Assembly: GCA_038057055.1 (NCBI GenBank)
Contig: JBBUDY010000002.1
Span: forward strand, 1 to 47,647
Source: Patescibacteria group bacterium
GTDB lineage: Bacteria > Patescibacteriota > Minisyncoccia > Phycocordibacterales > Phycocordibacteraceae
Direction: 5' to 3'
Length of the DNA: 47,647 nt
Part shown: in pieces, positions 3,092-29,004 of the stretch
How the letters are laid out: each line of letters begins with the position of its first letter
Position numbering within the stretch: the first letter of the stretch is position 1
Program-made: the position numbers and the translations under genes
Notes under the pieces: generated by a model
Seen by the model: the letters and a program-made list of their open reading frames with translations, nothing else
What the model was told of the DNA's origin: nothing
Database searches by the model: none

Positions 3092-3970
3092 ATGATAAAA
3101 ATATTATCAGTAGTTAAAAAGATTAGTACCCTCCGAGAGAGGTATTATAGAGCATTTGTTGGTAAAGAGGCACTTCTTACACTTATCTCCGAAGCTGAAA
3201 TCTCTGAGCAAGTTTACAACTCAAATGCTATTGAAAATAGTACGCTCAGTCTTGAAGAAACAGAAAAAATATTGCTCCAAATCGATCTTGACCGTTTCAT
3301 CAGCGAACGCGAGATCTTTGAAGCAAAAAACCTCGCGCGAGTTGTTTCATATATCGACAAACGTGCTAAGGAACAGGAACTCTCACTCGATGTCATACTA
3401 TTTCTGCATAAGATGCTCATTGCAAACATTCGTGATGATATTGCGGGAAGGTTTCGTAAAGAAAGAGAGTATGTGCGCGTTGGTAGCCACATCGCCCCAG
3501 CACCTCAAGAAATAATTGAACGATTAAATAAAATGCTGACTGAATATAACTCTGCAAGTCATGAGAGTATCATCAAGCGTGTCGCTCGACTACATCTCGC
3601 ATTTGAATACACCCACCCGTTTATCGATGGCAATGGGCGCATTGGACGTGTACTCAATAACTATATATTAATCCGCGAGGGGTATGTGCCCATCAACATC
3701 AAGTTTATCGACCGACAAAAATATTATGATGCTTTCACTGCATATAACAAAAACGGTGCGACCACCCTCATGGAAAAGATTGTGATAAAAGCGCTGACCA
3801 ATAGCTATTACAAGCGTCTTGCGTATCTTGAAGATAAAAAAATTGTCACTTTGAATGAATATGCAAAGAGCAACAATCTTTCACACTCCGGTCTCATCAA
3901 CAAAGCCGGTCGTCAAACAATAGAGGCTTTTCTGGAAAAGGGCGTATGGAAGATAGGACAGAACTTTTAG
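3092..3970 (+). CDS. Fic family AMPylase with N-terminal autoinhibitory motif
   Basis: Catalytic motif HPFIDGNGRIGR. SNAIEN matches the (S/T)xxxE(G/N) inhibitory motif. AT-richer than its neighbours. Confidence 0.92.
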   Translation: MIKILSVVKKISTLRERYYRAFVGKEALLTLISEAEISEQVYNSNAIENSTLSLEETEKILLQIDLDRFISEREIFEAKNLARVVSYIDKRAKEQELSLDVILFLHKMLIANIRDDIAGRFRKEREYVRVGSHIAPAPQEIIERLNKMLTEYNSASHESIIKRVARLHLAFEYTHPFIDGNGRIGRVLNNYILIREGYVPINIKFIDRQKYYDAFTAYNKNGATTLMEKIVIKALTNSYYKRLAYLEDKKIVTLNEYAKSNNLSHSGLINKAGRQTIEAFLEKGVWKIGQNF

Positions 3971-5824: not shown

Positions 5825-7798
5825 GTGAAATACCTCGATGGCTTGAATGACGCACAAAAGCGCGCGGTGCTTGCAAAAGACGGACCAATCTCTGTTCTTG
5901 CAGGTGCCGGAAGCGGGAAAACCCGCGTTTTGACGACGCGCATCTATCACCTTATCCGTACAGGCGTGCCGGCTTCGCAGGTTCTTGCGGTTACTTTCAC
6001 CAACAAGGCCGCTCGCGAGATGCGACATCGGGTACGGTCAATGCTCGGCGAGGACGGTATGCTCCCGTTCGTTGCTACTTTCCACGGATTGGGGAGGGAA
6101 TTGCTTGAGAGCTACGGAAAAGCAATCGGTGTCTCACGGTTCTTCAGTGTGTATGACCGCGATGATTCGGAGAAAGCGATAGGTACGGCACTAAAAGCGC
6201 TTGATGTCGGGACGAAAGAATTTTCACCGAGGGCGGTCCTCGGGAGAATCTCGCGCGCAAAAGGTAAGGGGGTGCGCGCACAAGAATTTTATGAAAAAAA
6301 TGCACGCTCGGGATTTGGCAATCGAATTACAGCCGAGGCGTGGCTGCGCTACGAGAAGACACTGAAGGAAGAGAAAGCGCTCGACTTTGATGACCTGATT
6401 GCACTCCCTGTGCAACTGCTCGAGGAACATGAGGACATTCGTGTGCTCGCACAAGACCGCTGGCAATACATCCACATCGATGAATACCAGGACACAAACG
6501 CACTTCAGGGTAGGCTCACGAATATGCTTGCGGCGAAACATAAAAATCTATTTGTCGTTGGTGATATCGATCAGACCATTTACACCTGGCGCGGGGCGAC
6601 GATAGAAAACTTGCTTGAGTTCGATAAAACCTATCCGGAGGCGCAGACAATTATCCTCGAGCGTAATTATCGTGCGACGAAAAATCTGGTTGATGCGGCA
6701 AATGCGGTGATAGAGAAGAATAAAAATCGTAAAGAAAAATATTCCACGACCGAAAAAGCGGCGGGTGCTCCCATTGTGGTGCATAGTGCGCGGAGTGCCG
6801 AGGACGAAGCACGTTGGATAGCGCTGACGATACGCACGCTCATGCGCGGCGGACTAAAACCAGAAGAGGTCGCGATATTGTTCCGTACGAACTTCCAGTC
6901 CCGTGCACTCGAAGAAGGACTTCTACGCGCGGGTGTGCCGTACAAACTTATCGGGACTAAATTTTTTGCGCGAAAGGAGGTGAAGGATGCGCTCGCATGG
7001 GTGCGGCTCGCGCTCGATTCTTCGCGTGAGGTGGACAAGCTCCGCGCGGCGGCGTCTCCACCGCGCGGGCTCGGCAAGGTAACACTCGGGAAACTCGCGG
7101 CAGGACAGCGTACACAACTGCGTGCTGGCGAACTCATGAAGGTGGAAGCATTTGAAAAAGTGGTTGAAGAATTGTCGCGTGCCGCAGAGACGCTCGTCCC
7201 TTCAGAATTTGTGAAGCTCGTTGTCGAGAAGAGCGGTATGCGTCGCGTGCTTTCTGACGAGGGGAGCGCTGAAGACCGCGAGCGATTTGAGAACGTTGAA
7301 GAACTTGCCTCGGTTGCCGCTCGACACGATTCAATGCCGGGGAAAGAAGGCATCGCGGCGTTTCTTGCCGAGGCGGCGCTCGCGAGCGACCAAGACGAAA
7401 TGGACCTGCCTGCCATGCCTGCGCATGCAGGGCAGGCAGGTCAGGGTGAAAAAAGAGGTGTCACGCTTATGACCGTCCATGCGGCAAAAGGGCTCGAGTT
7501 CAACACCGTCTTTGTGAGCGGGATGGAAGAAGGACTCTTCCCACATCAAGGAATGGGAAATGACACTGACCGCGATGAAGAAGAGGAGCGGAGACTCTTC
7601 TATGTCGCGGTCACGCGTGCCAAAGAGCGCCTGTATCTCACACTGGCATCTGTGCGTAAGATTTATGGGAGCGATTGTATGACGATACCCTCTTCTTTTC
7701 TCTCTGACATCGACAACTCACTGATGCTCTATGATGAAACATATGGTCCCTACTTCGCTGAAGCTACGAAGGGCGAGGAAGAAATTATTGAAGCATGA
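5825..7798 (+). CDS. pcrA: PcrA/UvrD superfamily 1 DNA helicase
   Basis: LAGAGSGKTRVL, TFTNKAA, DEYQDTN, VGDIDQTIY, LMTVHAAKGLEF, EERRLFYVAVTRA. GTG 5825 lies 6 nt after TATAGT. Confidence 0.93.
   Translation: MKYLDGLNDAQKRAVLAKDGPISVLAGAGSGKTRVLTTRIYHLIRTGVPASQVLAVTFTNKAAREMRHRVRSMLGEDGMLPFVATFHGLGRELLESYGKAIGVSRFFSVYDRDDSEKAIGTALKALDVGTKEFSPRAVLGRISRAKGKGVRAQEFYEKNARSGFGNRITAEAWLRYEKTLKEEKALDFDDLIALPVQLLEEHEDIRVLAQDRWQYIHIDEYQDTNALQGRLTNMLAAKHKNLFVVGDIDQTIYTWRGATIENLLEFDKTYPEAQTIILERNYRATKNLVDAANAVIEKNKNRKEKYSTTEKAAGAPIVVHSARSAEDEARWIALTIRTLMRGGLKPEEVAILFRTNFQSRALEEGLLRAGVPYKLIGTKFFARKEVKDALAWVRLALDSSREVDKLRAAASPPRGLGKVTLGKLAAGQRTQLRAGELMKVEAFEKVVEELSRAAETLVPSEFVKLVVEKSGMRRVLSDEGSAEDRERFENVEELASVAARHDSMPGKEGIAAFLAEAALASDQDEMDLPAMPAHAGQAGQGEKRGVTLMTVHAAKGLEFNTVFVSGMEEGLFPHQGMGNDTDRDEEEERRLFYVAVTRAKERLYLTLASVRKIYGSDCMTIPSSFLSDIDNSLMLYDETYGPYFAEATKGEEEIIEA
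7404..7441. repeat. Palindromic element family A (nested form), in frame in pcrA
   Basis: ACCTGCCTGCC...GGCAGGCAGGT, translated LPAMPAHAGQAG. Confidence 0.8.
7748..7774 (+). repeat. Palindromic element family B at the pcrA C-terminus
   Basis: CCCTACTTCGCTGAAGCTACGAAGGGC (PYFAEATKG), with near-identical copies at 28257 and 31194 and a reverse copy at 32618. Confidence 0.85.
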
Positions 7799-8574
7799 TG
7801 CACGCTAAAAAATCGTTGGGACAGAATTTCCTCATGCATGCGCGTATCGCAGAGCGGATTGCGCTCACTGCGAAGCTTGCACCTGACGCAACGGTGCTTG
7901 AGATAGGTCCCGGGACGGGTATGCTCACGCGGGAACTCCTAAAGTTGGCTGGGAAAGTAATTGCAGTCGAAGCGGATGCAGAACTTTTTGAAAAATTGCA
8001 AACAGATTTTGCACATGAAATCGCCGATGGGCGACTGAAACTTATCCATGGCGATATCCAAACATATCCCTTACACACTACGACCGTAGAAAATAAGGGA
8101 TATCAGGTGGTGGCAAATATCCCGTACTACCTCACGGGAGAAATAATCAGAATGTTTCTTGAATCAGAGAATCAACCAAGCGCGATGACCCTTCTCGTAC
8201 AGAAAGAAGTCGCCGAGCGTATCGCGCGCTCAAAAAAAGAAAGTATTCTGTCGCTTTCGGTAAAAGTCTATGGCACTCCGAAATACGAATTCACGGTACC
8301 ACGTGGGGCGTTTATGCCCGCACCGAATGTGGATTCGGCAGTGCTCACTATCCGTGATATTTCCCGAAAAAATTTTTCTACGCCCGAAGAAGAAAAGAAA
8401 TTTTTTGCATTGCTTCACACTGGATTCGCACATAAGCGCAAATTTGTACGGAAGAATTTAACTGAAGCCGGGCTTCCCGCTGGAGACATATCAAAAAAAG
8501 CACGCGCGGAGGATGTGACGCTCGTCGAGTGGATTTCCCTGAGCAAAGAAGGGTTCGAGCTAGCTACTTTCTAG
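7795..8574 (+). CDS. rsmA: 16S rRNA m6,2A dimethyltransferase RsmA/KsgA
   Basis: AKKSLGQNFL, VLEIGPGTG, VVANIPYYLT, FMPAPNVDSAV. Confidence 0.95.
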   Translation: MMHAKKSLGQNFLMHARIAERIALTAKLAPDATVLEIGPGTGMLTRELLKLAGKVIAVEADAELFEKLQTDFAHEIADGRLKLIHGDIQTYPLHTTTVENKGYQVVANIPYYLTGEIIRMFLESENQPSAMTLLVQKEVAERIARSKKESILSLSVKVYGTPKYEFTVPRGAFMPAPNVDSAVLTIRDISRKNFSTPEEEKKFFALLHTGFAHKRKFVRKNLTEAGLPAGDISKKARAEDVTLVEWISLSKEGFELATF

Positions 8575-22356: not shown

Positions 22357-22785
22357 ATGATATCTTTCTCAAAAGAACATCAGGATGTCCTGCGCGCGCT
22401 CGGAGTCGAGATCGTGTATCTCTTCGGGTCGCGTACACTCGGAGCGGCACATGACGCATCTGACTATGATGTCGGTGTCGTTTTCAGAGACCCGACAGTC
22501 ATTGCTGGTCGTCAATTTGAAACCTACCAAGCGTTGTATGCCATAGTGTCTGAATATCTGCCGGATCAGCTTGGCGGTGCGCATCCTGACCTGTCACTCC
22601 TGCAATTCGCGAATGCCGCTTTGGAGATGAGTGCTATTGACGGCGTCGTTTTGTTTGAGGCGGATCCGAATTTTCGTCTAACATACGAAGAAGAGGTCAT
22701 CAAACGGTACGATGATTACCGACATCTGCGGAATATCTACGAGGAAGCAACATTTGCTTCATTCGTGCCGACTAACTATGTATAA
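22357..22785 (+). CDS. MNT nucleotidyltransferase antitoxin (MntA-like)
   Basis: YLFGSRTLGAAHDASDYDVGV fits GSx10DxD. Leaderless start after TATAAT. Confidence 0.85.
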   Translation: MISFSKEHQDVLRALGVEIVYLFGSRTLGAAHDASDYDVGVVFRDPTVIAGRQFETYQALYAIVSEYLPDQLGGAHPDLSLLQFANAALEMSAIDGVVLFEADPNFRLTYEEEVIKRYDDYRHLRNIYEEATFASFVPTNYV

Positions 22786-23254
22786 GGTACCGCTATCGAA
22801 AACGAAGATAGAATCGAAGCTCGCCCTGATTCGTGAGGCCATGTCGGTGCTGAATACCGTCGGAGAACGGTTGTCCGCGGAACAGTTTGCGAGTGATCCG
22901 AGAGAATTTGCCGTGGCTGAGCACCATCTTCGCCGCGCGCTGGAAGCTATGTTCGATATCGCAGGACATATCATCTCCCGCTTTCCGTACGCTCCGGGGA
23001 AACGGCCGAAGACGATTAAAGAAATAGCACGTGCGTTGGGTGATAAGGGTGTAGTGGATAAAGAATTCGCGGAGAATCGTCTGGTAAAGATGGCAGGATA
23101 TCGCAATCGTCTTGTACATTTCTACGATGAGATAACGCCACAAGAGCTTTACCGTATCGTTACGTGTGATATGGGCGATATAGAACAATTCGCGCGTTCT
23201 GTTATTGAAGTTGTTCAGTCGCCTTCGCGTGTCGACTTAACCGTCGAAGAGTAG
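22778..23254 (+). CDS. HEPN (DUF86/HepT-like) RNase toxin
   Basis: RNRLVHFY fits Rx4HxY. The gene overlaps the MNT gene. Confidence 0.88.
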   Translation: MYKVPLSKTKIESKLALIREAMSVLNTVGERLSAEQFASDPREFAVAEHHLRRALEAMFDIAGHIISRFPYAPGKRPKTIKEIARALGDKGVVDKEFAENRLVKMAGYRNRLVHFYDEITPQELYRIVTCDMGDIEQFARSVIEVVQSPSRVDLTVEE

Positions 23255-23791: not shown

Positions 23792-24991
<1,200 letters not shown>

Positions 24992-24997
24992 GCCACA

Positions 24998-25429
24998 ATG
25001 GTTACTGCTCCTTCAAAACCAAAAGCCAAGACAATGAAGAAGACGGCGCCCAAGCGCGCGGCTTCGCCGCGCGCAAAAGCCGCGCCAAGAAAGAAAGCCG
25101 TCGCTCCCATTGTTCCCGCAGTAGAGCACAAACTCCGCATCCGCGTGAAAGCGTATGAGCACAAGATTCTCGACCTTTCGGTGAAGCAGATTATGGACAC
25201 CGCCGCACGCTTCGACGCGGTCGTCGTCGGCCCGGTCCCGCTCCCGACCGAGATTAAGCGTTGGACAGTGAACCGCTCGACCTTCGTCTACAAGGACGCA
25301 CGAGAACAGTTCGAAATGCGCGTCCACAAGCGCCTTATCGACATCCTGAACCCCTCGCCGAAGGTGATCGAGGCCCTCACCAATCTGAACCTGCCAAGTG
25401 GTGTCACGATTGATGTGAAGATGGTTTAA
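24998..25429 (+). CDS. rpsJ: 30S ribosomal protein S10 with Lys/Ala-rich N-terminal extension
   Basis: [32 protein letters not shown]. Confidence 0.96.
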
Positions 25430-25449
25430 CAAAGACGACCAAGAATATG

Positions 25450-25479
25450 AAAAATCCCCGCCATCTGGCGGGGATTTTT
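25450..25479 (+). terminator. Terminator after rpsJ
   Basis: AAAAATCCCCGCCA-TC-TGGCGGGGATTTTT. Confidence 0.8.
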
Positions 25480-25499
25480 CGTGCTACAATGCAGACATT

Positions 25500-25751
25500 A
25501 TGACTTACACGTATCGCATTATTATTGAACCAGACGAAGGCGGTTACCACGCCTATGTTCCGGCACTTTCCGGTTGTCACACCTGGGGCAAGACTATTGA
25601 TGAAGCGCGTGCTATGGTGCGCGACGCGATTGATGCGTATCTGCGAAGCCTCGTTGCCGATGGTGAAAGTGTGCCAACCGATTCAGGATTTGAACTGTTT
25701 GAAACGGTTTCTGCGCCAAAAGGAGCGCGACCAGTACTCGCACATGCCTAG
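25500..25751 (+). CDS. hicB: HicB family antitoxin
   Basis: YHAYVPALSGCHTWGKTIDEA. Confidence 0.88.
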   Translation: MTYTYRIIIEPDEGGYHAYVPALSGCHTWGKTIDEARAMVRDAIDAYLRSLVADGESVPTDSGFELFETVSAPKGARPVLAHA

Positions 25752-25968
25752 GGCTCCAAGAATCTCGGCACAAAAACTTATCCGCGTTCTGAAGAAACTT
25801 GGTTTCAACGAGCATGCTGAACGCGGAACATCGCATCTCGTTTTCTCTCACCCAGATGGCAGACGAACACTCGTCTCACGCCACCGCGGTGATATAAAAA
25901 AAGGAACGCTGGCAGGCATCCTGCGCGACCTCAAAATCTCCTCTGACGAATTCAGGAATCTACTTTAA
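25744..25968 (+). CDS. hicA: HicA family mRNA interferase toxin
   Basis: LKKLGF...GTSHLVFSHPDGR...HRGDIKKGTLAGIL. The gene overlaps hicB. Confidence 0.88.
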   Translation: MPRAPRISAQKLIRVLKKLGFNEHAERGTSHLVFSHPDGRRTLVSRHRGDIKKGTLAGILRDLKISSDEFRNLL

Positions 25969-25994
25969 TAATAGTTTAACAAGGTCGCCAAGAA

Positions 25995-26030
25995 AACACA
26001 CAACCGCCCGCAAGAGCGGTTGTGTGTTTC
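25995..26030 (+). terminator. Hairpin terminator, duplicated at 27111-27142
   Basis: AACACACAACCGCCC-GCAA-GAGCGGTTGTGTGTT. Confidence 0.75.
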
Positions 26031-26082
26031 TTAGGGATTTGTTAGTTTAGAGTTTGTTCATCTTTGTACACAGGAGGGAAAA

Positions 26083-26283
26083 GTGGCGAAAGTTAAGTAC
26101 GTTGTCGCTGGTATCAGGAATTATTTCGGCCGAGCCGGCGAACAGGGAATGATTCTTGGTGAATTCCGGAAGATAGAATTCGCACGTCGGGTGCGTGAAC
26201 AAATGCTTCAAATGGGCCGGAAGAAACAATGGTCGGGCCGCCGTGGTATTTTCCTCAACGGCAAATTTGTTGAAGAGCTTTGA
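26083..26283 (+). CDS. Hypothetical basic 66-aa protein
   Basis: SD AGGAGG before a GTG start, followed by the hairpin at 26299-26321. Confidence 0.55.
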   Translation: MAKVKYVVAGIRNYFGRAGEQGMILGEFRKIEFARRVREQMLQMGRKKQWSGRRGIFLNGKFVEEL

Positions 26284-26387
26284 CCTGTCATCCACCTAAG
26301 ACCGCGAGACTCTCGCGGTCTCGCTATTTGCATCTTTTGGAGGGGTAGAGTAGAGAAGCCAACACCGCTTTGTTATTCACATTCCAG

Positions 26388-26426
26388 TGTTCGTTAAGTC
26401 CAACGACCGTGTAGAATAACGAACAT
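26388..26426. promoter_or_regulatory. Palindromic site 1, overlapping the -10 box and start of the PaaX-like gene
   Basis: TGTTCGTTAAGTC-N12-AGAATAACGAACAT, containing TAGAAT and the start of the ATG. Confidence 0.75.
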
Positions 26427-27039
26427 GAAGAAAAGAGAACAGAAAGGGAGTGTTGAGGAGAGGGTTAGATACAGAGCAAAGCGAAATCAAATAAGAAACG
26501 CCATTTTGTTGTCGGCGTATCTTGCTATCGGTGCCGGCATGATGATCATGACACCGAACGCTGTGAGACTTCTCAAGTATGTAGAAAAAGCCATTGGACC
26601 CTCTCCTCGACTCGGGCGACGGGTGAGTCAAAAATATTCTGAATTGATCGCGCAAGGGATATTCAAACGCACTCATTCACCACGTGGACTGCGGATAGAA
26701 CTAACAGAGAAGGGGATGAAAATCGCTGAGGAGTTGAGTCAGCGTGAAGAAATACGTCCTATAAAGCAGAAGAAATGGGATCAGAAATGGCGGATCATTA
26801 TGTTTGATGTGTGGGAACGTCGTCGCAAGGTACGTGATGAGTTACGAGAGACTCTCAAAGAAATTGGTTTCGTCAAAGTCCAGAACAGCGCCTGGACTTA
26901 TCCGTATCCGTGCGAAAAGCTCCTTGTCTTTTTACGCATGCACCTCAAGCTCGGTCACGGGATCCTCTACATAGTCGCCGATGAGATAGAACATGACGAA
27001 AAACTCCGCAAGCACTTTGATCTCCCGCCACCACTATAA
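26425..27039 (+). CDS. PaaX-like protein (wHTH plus Cas2-like ferredoxin domain)
   Basis: Wing IELTEKG, then KWDQKWRIIMFDVWERRRKVRDELRETLKEIGFVKVQNSAWTYPYPC. Confidence 0.8.
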   Translation: MKKREQKGSVEERVRYRAKRNQIRNAILLSAYLAIGAGMMIMTPNAVRLLKYVEKAIGPSPRLGRRVSQKYSELIAQGIFKRTHSPRGLRIELTEKGMKIAEELSQREEIRPIKQKKWDQKWRIIMFDVWERRRKVRDELRETLKEIGFVKVQNSAWTYPYPCEKLLVFLRMHLKLGHGILYIVADEIEHDEKLRKHFDLPPPL

Positions 27040-27053
27040 TGCTGTAAGAATCG

Positions 27054-27093
27054 ATGTTCGTTAAGTCAGGCGGTCGTGGGACTTAACGAACAT
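27054..27093. repeat. Palindromic site 2, downstream of the PaaX-like gene
   Basis: Perfect 14-bp arms: ATGTTCGTTAAGTC-N12-GACTTAACGAACAT. Confidence 0.85.
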
Positions 27094-27176
27094 TGTAACA
27101 ATCACTAAATAACACACAACCGCTCGCAAGGGCGGTTTTGTGGTACAATAGTCCCATTAGTAATCTTTATTCGACT

Positions 27177-27437
27177 ATGTCTACAGAAAAACCTAACGCT
27201 TTATCTGAGAAACTTCCTTCAAGTGACGAAAAGCTCATAAGCCAGATTCAAGAGATTCTTGGAAGTCTCGAGAAACCACTTGCTCGCATTGAAATTCGAT
27301 TACAGAAATTACAAGAACTATCTGAAAACTCCAACGACTCTCTCCTTATTCAAGAACGTGAAATGGCATCCGAGGACTTACAGAACATTAGAGAGATAAT
27401 CGAGCGAATGAAGCAGATGCAGCGTATAAGCGAGTAG
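27177..27437 (+). CDS. Hypothetical coiled-coil protein
   Basis: 86-aa Glu/Leu-rich ORF with an upstream TACAAT. Confidence 0.55.
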   Translation: MSTEKPNALSEKLPSSDEKLISQIQEILGSLEKPLARIEIRLQKLQELSENSNDSLLIQEREMASEDLQNIREIIERMKQMQRISE

Positions 27438-27439
27438 TA

Positions 27440-27468
27440 TTGCATTTCCCTGGACACTGCGGTAGAGT
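27440..27468 (+). promoter_or_regulatory. rplC promoter
   Basis: TTGCAT-17 nt-TAGAGT, followed by a structured leader. Confidence 0.55.
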
Positions 27469-27626
27469 GCCTTTAACGCTACGTACCTCCTCGGAGGGAC
27501 CTATGGCAGAACGCGCGATGCGTCTCTGCATCGCGCGTTTTGCTTAGCACCCACCAATATTTTGAAGCAAAAAATTAGGCGGGTAAGGTTTTTCTAAACC
27601 TCACTTCGCTCGGCAACAAAAACCTT

Positions 27627-28289
27627 ATGAAATTTATTCTCGCCAAGAAAGAAGGAATGACCCGTATCTATACGGAGGATGGTCGCGCTTATGCAGGAAC
27701 TATTTTGACGGCTGATCCGGTGACGGTGACCCAAGTGAAGACTACAGACGGTAAAGATAAGTATTCGGCGGTGCAGGTCGGTGTTGGCACACGGAAGGTA
27801 AAAAATATTTCTAAGGCGGTTCTTGGCCACACGAAGGGGAAGGGATACACCGACATCCGCGAAATGCGCCTGCCTGCGCAGGCAGGCGGCGCCGAAGGCG
27901 CTGCGGTCGGCGACACGATCGATGCGTCAGTGTTTGTCGTTGGTGATGTTGTGCAGGTTTCGGGTATTTCAAAGGGTAAAGGCTTTTCAGGAGTAGTGAA
28001 GCGCCACGGCTTCCACGGCGGCCCGCGTTCTCACGGCCAGAAGCACACCGAGCGTAGCCCTGGCTCTATCGGTGGCTCAGGTGGTCGCGCCGGCGGTCGT
28101 GTTGCGAAGGGGATGAAGATGGCCGGTCGTCTTGGCACTGATCGCGTAACCGTGACGAACCTTAAGGTGCTCCTCGTCGACAAGAAGGAAGGAAAGATTA
28201 TCGTCAGCGGCGCCGTGCCAGGTCGCCGCGGCACTCTGCTTGAGGTAGTCTCTGCACCCTACTTCGCTAAGGCTACGAAGGACACGTAA
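27627..28289 (+). CDS. rplC: 50S ribosomal protein L3
   Basis: SKGKGFSGVVKRHGF, RSPGSIG, GRVAKGMKMAGRLG. Confidence 0.97.
   Translation: MKFILAKKEGMTRIYTEDGRAYAGTILTADPVTVTQVKTTDGKDKYSAVQVGVGTRKVKNISKAVLGHTKGKGYTDIREMRLPAQAGGAEGAAVGDTIDASVFVVGDVVQVSGISKGKGFSGVVKRHGFHGGPRSHGQKHTERSPGSIGGSGGRAGGRVAKGMKMAGRLGTDRVTVTNLKVLLVDKKEGKIIVSGAVPGRRGTLLEVVSAPYFAKATKDT
27867..27888. repeat. Family A palindrome in frame in rplC
   Basis: CGCCTGCCTGCGCAGGCAGGCG (RLPAQAG). Confidence 0.85.
28257..28283 (+). repeat. Family B element at the rplC C-terminus
   Basis: CCCTACTTCGCTAAGGCTACGAAGGAC (PYFAKATKD). Confidence 0.85.
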
Positions 28290-28299
28290 TTTAAATACT

Positions 28300-29004
28300 A
28301 TGGCTACCAAAAAGATTAAAAAAGAATACGTACCAATCGAAGCCCCCATCTTCTCTATGGACGGCAAGAAGGTCGGCACGATTGCGCTTCCCGAGAGCAT
28401 TTTTGGTGCGCCGTGGCGGAGCGACCTCGTACACCAGGTCACGACCGCGATGCAGGCGAACCTGCGCCAGAACCGCGCACACACGAAGGACCGTGCCGAA
28501 GTCTCTGGTGGCGGCAAGAAGCCGTGGAAGCAGAAGGGCACCGGCCAGGCGCGTCACGGCTCCACCCGCTCACCGATATGGCGCCACGGTGGCATTACCT
28601 TTGGCCCTCGCTCGACACGCGACTACAGTGAGAAGATAAACAAGAAGATGCGCATCGGCGCGCTCCTCTCGGTGCTCTCGCGCAAAGCGAAGGACGGCGA
28701 GATTATTCTTGTCGATGAAATTGTTTTCGCAACACCGAAGACAGCGATGGCCAAATCTTCACTCCAGAAACTTGCAAAAGGTGCAGTGGCAGAACAACTT
28801 ATCACAAAGAAAAAGAATGCCGCTCTCTTCGCGCTCTCTGCGTACAATACAAACACAATAAAGAGTTTCAGTAACTTCGGTAATGTGATGACTGAAGAAA
28901 TGCGTAGCCTCAATCCGGTTGATGTGCTTTCGCACAAGTACCTCGTCATCGAGAAGCCGGAGGCGGCGTTCAAGGCGCTTATCGCTCGTTCAAAATCTAA
29001 GTAA
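28300..29004 (+). CDS. rplD: 50S ribosomal protein L4
   Basis: TKDRAEVSGGGKKPWKQKGTGQARHGS. Confidence 0.97.
   Translation: MATKKIKKEYVPIEAPIFSMDGKKVGTIALPESIFGAPWRSDLVHQVTTAMQANLRQNRAHTKDRAEVSGGGKKPWKQKGTGQARHGSTRSPIWRHGGITFGPRSTRDYSEKINKKMRIGALLSVLSRKAKDGEIILVDEIVFATPKTAMAKSSLQKLAKGAVAEQLITKKKNAALFALSAYNTNTIKSFSNFGNVMTEEMRSLNPVDVLSHKYLVIEKPEAAFKALIARSKSK

Follow-up and report, generated by a model that had tools for sequence, protein, structure and literature searches.

A winged-helix, Cas2/VapD-fold protein family of candidate-phyla bacteria and the paired and scattered palindromes that it may help to spread

The window, a stretch of 47,647 nucleotides from an ultra-small groundwater bacterium of the Patescibacteria group (contig JBBUDY010000002.1), carries among ribosomal genes an open reading frame of 204 codons enclosed by two long palindromic sites (Table 1). 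Both sites were present as the initial annotation had described them. Site 2 has arms of a perfect 14 bp around a 12-nt spacer, and with 15 of 19 palindrome pairs matched, compared with 12 of 19 in site 1, the copy after the stop codon is indeed the more perfect one. The two sites agreed at 31 of 38 positions when one was inverted and at 28 of 38 in direct orientation, and the relationship reported for their spacers (9 of 12 in inverted orientation) was reproduced. Site 2 is a physical copy of site 1. A -10-like hexamer, TAGAAT, lies within site 1 (26412-26417), which ends in the AT of the ATG; a sigma-70 scan at site 1 did not call a full promoter. Together with the like construction of near-spaced units elsewhere in the family, this placement agrees with the role first proposed for site 1, which is likely the autorepression operator of a leaderless transcript.

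Table 1. Position of the gene, its two sites and related features in the window
Feature	Position	Strand	Remark
In-frame solo site of another paralog type in ksgA (7798-8574)	8065..8102		21 of 30 orthologs have an empty loop
First copy of the rpsJ terminator-like hairpin, at its ancestral position	25994..26029		Only two copies in the assembly
Copy of rplC promoter-like segment, upstream of site 1	26328..26356	+	Other copy at 27440-27468
Site 1, imperfect palindrome of 38-40 bp	26388..26426		Core CGACCG, 26404-26409
Protein-coding ORF, 204 aa	26425..27039	+	Winged helix and Cas2/VapD-fold domain
Site 2, more perfect copy of site 1	27054..27093		Core CGGTCG, 27071-27076; 14 nt after the stop codon
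Second hairpin copy just past site 2	27111..27142		Belongs to a target duplication beyond the sites

The 13-mer half-site occurred three times in the 814-kb assembly of the window genome (86% complete; hereafter G000), each time at this locus, and a third copy of the site type, matching at 33 of 38 positions, was found on another contig (C50:27445-27482). Chance does not account for the pair of sites: the flank pair scored 45, and the nearest threshold, 40, was reached by 8 of 1533 cross pairs. No Rfam family matched across 24900-28400. In line with the reported lack of paa genes and of a CRISPR array nearby, neither PaaA/PaaC (PF05138) nor Cas1 was found in the 86%-complete assembly.

The protein consists of a winged helix (residues ~10-112) with a long, hydrophobic first helix (26-44), followed by a Cas2/VapD-fold domain (116-200). 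Pfam PaaX_M matched residues 116-192 (E 5e-20), Cas2 stayed under its model's cut-off (E 6e-4), and neither the N-terminal nor the C-terminal PaaX model was matched. Among solved folds, domains one and two of E. coli PaaX came closest, with Cas2 proteins next; residues 12-201 aligned to residues 10-193 (of 305) of 8a39 (Z 8.8; Foldseek E 2e-5). D128, E131, R137, Q153 and S155 were invariant in 188/188 family proteins and sat, in a structure model, where strand 1 ends and in the turn between strands 2 and 3. D128 and S155 are placed like the catalytic Asp7 and Ser43 of VapD (available text of PMC3351183 and PMC11980593), and the PaaX-like chain 3kfw has other residues at the invariant Asp, Gln and Ser positions. 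The family had a dN/dS of 0.03. Hydropathy over the first-helix stretch was at least 1.6 in 172 of 188 proteins; a membrane anchor at residues 26-44 need not be invoked, as these residues align to helix one of ordinary winged helices. Structure prediction with two copies of residues 8-112, to look for a second dimer interface for looping, scored 0.02 and is neutral on this point. The nearest homologs came from candidate-phyla (Paceibacteria-type) genomes. Single-sequence searches of viral contigs and of the PDB gave no match, a profile search of viral contigs gave one locus (L111), which had no paired sites, and hardly any members of the family were found in viral contigs, phages or plasmids.

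Inspection of the flanks of PaaX-like genes in other genomes, the check put forward in the initial annotation, revealed protein-specific paired palindromes. Full flanks were available for 103 of 111 distinct homologs. A shared upstream and downstream site was present at 92 of the 103 loci; the rates for comparison were 42 of 1533 among cross pairs and 13 of 557 among the other ORFs of the window genome (paralogs included). Within the genus 121 of 127 units (site-gene-site) were paired; for distant members the figure was 19 of 42 versus 0 of 150 cross pairs, and those that were paired mostly had the hydrophobic first helix (15 of 21 versus 4 of 21 by hand count). The gene was present in 44 of 151 genus genomes with one to nine copies each, and in 75 of 301 genomes of the phylum; the family comprised 944 clusters at E<=1e-30. 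These counts, like those of dispersal below, include related genomes that are not independent. Seven paralogs, each with its own site pair, were found in the window genome. Family sites had the core consensus C-[GT]-[AG]-[CT]-[AC]-G; the centre of site 1 was 15-20 or 35-50 nt ahead of the ATG, and site 2 lay from a few to 160 nt past the stop codon. All 92 near-spaced units had a TAnnnT hexamer in the final 16 nt before the ATG. A literature search, mostly of openly readable journals, returned no description of the protein family or its sites.

Some members departed from this plan. Site 2 overlapped the stop codon or fell within the coding end of the gene in L029, L044 and L099. Divergent members of 158-180 or 243-277 aa (L463-L471, L473, L474, L476), often single-copy, had neither the hydrophobic first helix nor paired sites and are possibly domesticated regulators. 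DnaA-box-like 9-mers, scored against what we take to be the DnaA-box consensus, occurred within 130 nt upstream of 24 of 186 family genes versus 17 of 568 other ORFs; 16 of these 24 lay outside site 1, the 9-mers falling partly inside the arms.

The two sites of a unit are copies of one another. Breaks in symmetry fell at the same position in both sites 454 times (284 expected), with the same letters in 272 of these (126 expected), and in 49 of 72 units the shared breaks were all on one side (25 expected). The core class was identical in both sites of 184 of 188 units and changed 12 times on the tree. The cores of a pair were in direct orientation in 53 of the 188 units, inverted in 26, symmetric in 108 and otherwise arranged in one, and in the ortholog L031 the site-1 core was flipped with the orientation of the gene unchanged. 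Given this freedom and the L031 flip, the inverted arrangement in the window is incidental, and the suggestion of an invertible unit was not borne out. Nor was an inverted ortholog present at the window junction. Across 24800-28400, the contigs of four runs gave no joint of the organism's own that would mark an excision or inversion, contigs being prone to drop rare variants; a single opposite-strand joint (26426/27040) came from a divergent contig and was read as the site 2 of a relative. Inner and outer arms showed no asymmetry (14.53 vs 14.56), hybrid attL/attR-like arms were not seen, and symmetry past 19 bp, considered as an inverted target duplication, did not rise above a nearest-neighbour null (0.53 vs 0.47).

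Site symmetry was strictly Watson-Crick, with tight constraint at the core and outer arms and a looser stretch between them, in sites that had been preselected for symmetry. The strongest covariation linked the base beside the core with residues 134 and 138 in the first helix of the Cas2-like domain: C accompanied Lys134 in 33 of 34 cases, and T accompanied the combination of Arg134 and Asp138 in 46 of 50. When disjoint nearest pairs were compared, a change of this base coincided with one at residue 134 or 138 in 23 of 24 cases, a residue-base test that is confounded by overall divergence, other columns giving similar p values. The window protein has Arg134 and Asp138, and three of its four arms have T. 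The proposal that the protein recognises its own flanking sites thus received support from the protein-specific pairing across the family and from the covariation, in which two residues predict one base, and the 204-aa protein probably binds the two palindromes. Two other readings of the sites were discarded. An RNA hairpin or RNA antitoxin is at odds with the few G-U pairs in the arms, the Rfam result and the position of site 1, mostly upstream of the likely transcription start; likeness to integron attC or dif sites came down to a GTTRRRY look-alike peculiar to the window paralog.

Sites were also dispersed away from the gene. With profiles of the units, 42 sites were detected in the window genome and none in a shuffled genome; 14 flank the seven paralogs, and the remaining ones stand alone (solos), belong to mixed arrays or lie in frame within ksgA, miaA, uvrB and uvrC. 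One loop of ksgA held a site, of several types, in 9 of 30 orthologs; the gene was present in all nine of these genomes and in 10 of the 21 with an empty loop. An in-frame site was found in two of five uvrC genes, adding 39 nt at one loop, and in two of six miaA genes. The window's own site type adds exactly 39 nt to uvrB, where a loop of five residues (the length at 16 of 33 loci) becomes one of 18 residues in three genomes. Judged by their orthologs, the in-frame sites are evidently insertions where relatives are empty. The recommended search for empty sites yielded nothing at the uvrB solo, for which no empty allele was seen in the contigs of four runs.

The window's own site pattern occurred in 19 of 222 genomes, with 0 for a reversed control. 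The loci of those 19 genomes and 78 listed of 119 metagenome stretches gave 88 distinct places, comprising 29 flanking sites, 39 intergenic solos, 15 near an end and unclassed, and five in ORFs, three of which are uvrB loops lengthened by exactly 13 residues. Genus-wide, 88 solos were collected, 83 of them in gene-bearing genomes, with a model that outside G000 favours perfect palindromes and missed known sites (the flanks of G208). A resident unit was matched by 38 of the 83 (null mean 10.3, maximum 29 in 2000), and the other 45, including all 14 in G062, matched no gene of their assembly. A covariance model had matches, flanking sites counted too, in 41 of 150 genomes, 33 of them with the gene and eight without it (G087 with 13 strand matches); a further 11 gene-bearing genomes had no match to this model of limited sensitivity. 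In G063 a single gene was accompanied by four solos identical to its site 1, and four of five near relatives yielded neither gene nor site; G079 had three identical solos. A search for Y1 transposases found none in G063 or G079, which may reflect loss; Y1 enzymes were present in three of five solo-rich genomes tested.

Solos occupied 41 tandem, 10 divergent and 9 convergent gaps (background 102, 33 and 21), and in tracking the background they are unlike promoter operators. In two gaps examined, 3 of 31 genomes and 1 of 15, respectively, carried a solo, and two solos replace the terminator of a convergent gap. Many G000 solos adjoin toxin-antitoxin, Fic or DUF5674 genes. Unlike site types also formed back-to-back arrays, 0-28 nt apart and without spacers. 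The nearest relatives being at most 84% identical, a target duplication or cut site is unreadable at every solo. Arrays of two or three site types were recorded in G000 at C50:26497-26620 and 27342-27482, C36:3909-4036, C3:7814-7891, C19:59724-59813 and C63:19129-19228; several of their site types belong to paralogs absent from the assembly, and a pair of DUF5674 genes lies between the two C50 arrays.

The gene itself was largely stationary. The window clade comprised 16 units of 71-100% identity, and all 15 with a readable neighbour were at the rpsJ-rplC junction. At this junction 6 of 22 close relatives had a site-free gap of 150-193 bp with terminator and promoter; the others had unrelated inserts, or their contig ended early. 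In the window, terminator and promoter are both duplicated around the unit, outside the sites. Such duplications of 30-70 bp outside the sites accompanied 19 of 169 units versus 5 of 1500 controls, and comparable ones surround unrelated accessory genes as well; host duplications of 30-90 bp are a general cassette-insertion signature. Over the genus, 124 units occupied 41 contexts, with 48 context changes on the tree versus 94-98 in the shuffles shown; 41 of 117 unit pairs at 80-89% identity had no common neighbour, and one junction held unrelated subfamilies in opposite orientation. Solos stood where relatives hold a full unit in six cases (eight flagged, two self-matches removed), and in L509 the window's site-1 leader is joined via a single site to a site-2-type terminator. 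Site-gene-site units thus evidently collapse to one site. The earlier idea of a minimal mobile unit held insofar as mobility exists, chiefly that of the palindrome itself; the sites as insertion ends of the gene were not supported, since such duplications as were seen lie outside them and the gene stays at rpsJ-rplC in its clade.

Small accessory genes have a hotspot in the ribosomal cluster. A hicB-hicA pair (25500-25968) lies between rpsJ and the window unit, and a nucleotidyltransferase plus HepT-like pair (22357-23254) upstream of tuf. A minus-strand ORF of 82 aa at 26047-26295 had no Pfam match; the homologous stretch of L509 is a plus-strand ORF, so that the real small gene at this position may be on the plus strand. 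Direct duplications of 30-90 bp of a host gene's 3' end or terminator flanked varied accessory genes (window 3092-3970; G000 C3:7993-9168; the C17 unit; L033, L075, L351), the duplicated host genes being eno, rpsG, rnc, fusA and, presumably, judging by a motif, rseP.

In our judgement it is about an even call that the window unit represents an autorepressed protein-palindrome pair of RAYT/REP-like behaviour, whose Cas2/VapD-fold protein is predicted to nick or cut the core and to drive copying. On this view the palindrome would be a short DNA element that has been copied to many places in these genomes, and the protein is predicted to assist in its spread, as RAYT enzymes presumably do for REP repeats. 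A dimer of the Cas2/VapD fold would read the central C-NNNN-G core and the next base through helix 131-147, two winged helices would read arm positions 11-18, occupancy of site 1 would shut off the gene's own leaderless promoter, and the retained Asp128/Ser155 cleft would nick or cut at the core, although the invariant residues could instead serve base reading alone. Repair from the hairpin, or its reinsertion, might then produce homogenised site pairs, core flips, solos and arrays, and whole-gene moves would be rarer, probably using the host's ordinary cassette-insertion route. This reading takes in the site pairing, its protein specificity, the copying, the solos in gaps and in frame, the collapse and the stasis of the gene described above.

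Among known systems, RAYT-REP/REPIN and BIMEs offer the closest parallel: a gene flanked by two cognate palindromes, scattered repeats, mixed clusters, protein-repeat covariation, and a gene that is mostly vertical with repeats that spread (available text of PMC2817692). The window protein differs in combining a winged helix with a Cas2/VapD fold in place of HUH/Y1 (no PF01797 match), and its sites are AT-rich 38-bp dyads with the constraint pattern of a protein operator and without a GTAG-type head. Pair orientation is not fixed, whereas a RAYT pair is always inverted; copies number about 2-14 per type instead of hundreds, and in-frame copies are frequent. With PaaX the protein shares the first two domains (PDB 8a39, 3l09), a widely spaced dyad of ~39 bp and probable autorepression (available text of PMC9493321), but it has 204 instead of ~300 residues, lacks the C-terminal phenylacetyl-CoA-binding domain (no PaaX_C match), is not expected to control paa genes, keeps Asp, Gln and Ser, and has a second site after the stop codon, up to nine paralogs with different sites, and mobile solos. 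VapD and Cas2 proteins (HP0315, SSO1404, SSO8090) have the same ferredoxin-like fold and Phe-Asp and Phe-x3-Gln-x-Ser-x-aromatic pattern (available text of PMC3351183 and PMC11980593); here the fold is fused to a winged helix, is predicted to be sequence-specific for a DNA dyad, and has no VapX/Y/W partner gene or other conserved partner over 41 contexts. A CRISPR Cas2 would be expected beside Cas1 and an array, neither of which was found here. Rickettsia palindromic elements and MITEs likewise place palindromic DNA in frame in unrelated conserved genes, but these Rickettsia elements are ~150 bp long and the available part of a review gives no cognate protein gene for them (PMC10969869), whereas the 38-39 bp element described here is tied to a specific protein family. 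From insertion sequences and invertible cassettes the unit differs in that its ends do not appear to coincide with the repeats, its orientation is not fixed and the duplications lie outside the sites. It is thus not a member of the PaaX, RAYT, CRISPR-Cas2 or IS groups.

Tentatively, and somewhat short of an even chance, these units of candidate-phyla bacteria may represent miniature mobile DNA of a new class, in which a nuclease of winged-helix plus Cas2/VapD fold would bind, cut and recopy its own 38-bp palindrome, sequence-specifically and outside CRISPR, with a readable amino-acid-to-base code; it would then be a possible living model of the first encounter between Cas2 and a CRISPR repeat. 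To our knowledge, every described REP-type mobile palindrome relies on an HUH transposase, and the known roles of Cas2/VapD proteins are those of scaffold or non-specific nuclease. If true, the proposal would bring new chemistry to the field of small mobile DNA, with the Cas2/VapD fold reading and likely spreading a long palindrome, would supply orthogonal protein-site pairs from nature by the hundred, together with a partial code, would account for 13-residue inserts within conserved CPR proteins, and would correct the 'PaaX' or 'Cas2' annotations common in these genomes.

A non-catalytic autorepressor, possibly looping site 1 to site 2, appears rather unlikely to us as a full account. Solos would then be passive relics or a loose regulon, arising by RecA-type collapse, target duplications and host- or RAYT-driven insertion, and some would become operators or terminators. 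Collapse requires no new enzyme, the closest solved fold is that of a repressor, the site length equals that of the PaaX operator TGATTC-N27-GAATCA (available text of PMC9493321), and site 1 lies on the promoter. The frequent position of G000 solos beside toxin-antitoxin, Fic and DUF5674 genes and the two convergent gaps with a replaced terminator point the same way. So does the use of the same loops by others: those of UvrB, UvrC, MiaA and KsgA also host palindromes from other families, several of which are linked to Y1 transposases and one of which flanks a Y1 gene in G000, so that a general host route of palindrome insertion may exist. The in-frame 39-nt solos in uvrB and uvrC, however, cannot be promoter operators, nor can they come from collapse alone; the gap classes of solos match the background, and identical multi-copy solos occur in the genomes in which no Y1 enzyme was found. 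A pure repressor would have no obvious need for the Asp, Gln and Ser that 3kfw lacks, and helical phasing of the site 1-site 2 spacing was not seen, in a test that is weak at 600-800 bp.

Improbable, in our estimate, is a solo toxin with a DNA antidote, that is, a VapD-like RNase or DNase that cannot reach its target as long as it is clamped to the palindrome. Site 2 would serve as a sponge, as would the solos, mixed arrays would guard against paralogs arriving from elsewhere, and the toxin would be released once the DNA is lost or degraded, resulting in addiction or abortive infection. The intact VapD catalytic pattern (available text of PMC3351183 and PMC11980593) and a predicted cleft that borders the DNA-reading helix fit such a toxin, as do the patchy, multi-copy, accessory gene among toxin-antitoxin modules, the well-kept orphan solos and the tight mixed arrays; it leaves the insertion of sites unexplained, has no phage link, and has to accommodate the 11 gene-bearing genomes without a match to the covariance model, limited as its sensitivity is. 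Very improbable is a minimal invertible or cut-and-paste unit with the two sites as its ends and the protein as recombinase, since the many contexts, the pairs without a shared neighbour, the junction with opposite orientations and the solos at unit junctions are outweighed by the variable core orientation, the symmetric arms, duplications that lie outside the sites and also flank unrelated genes, the stationary gene of the window clade, the lack of own-organism joints in the contigs of four runs, and the near absence from viral contigs, phages and plasmids.

The permissive loops of UvrB, UvrC, MiaA and KsgA (L185-L214, L215-L223, L155-L184) held, within the genus, in-frame palindromic inserts of many unrelated families, with 16 inserts in 32 parsed uvrB loci. 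The window genome has four Y1 genes, all away from the 204-aa gene. A second dispersed palindrome, with 13-bp arms AAGGTTCGACCTT set 13-14 nt apart, was found in G000 on C25, C29, C31, C34, C43, C48, C50, C62 and C64 and in L227. One copy of this family flanks the Y1_Tnp gene on C64, as in a RAYT/REP-like system, and a related palindrome flanks the Y1 gene on C22.
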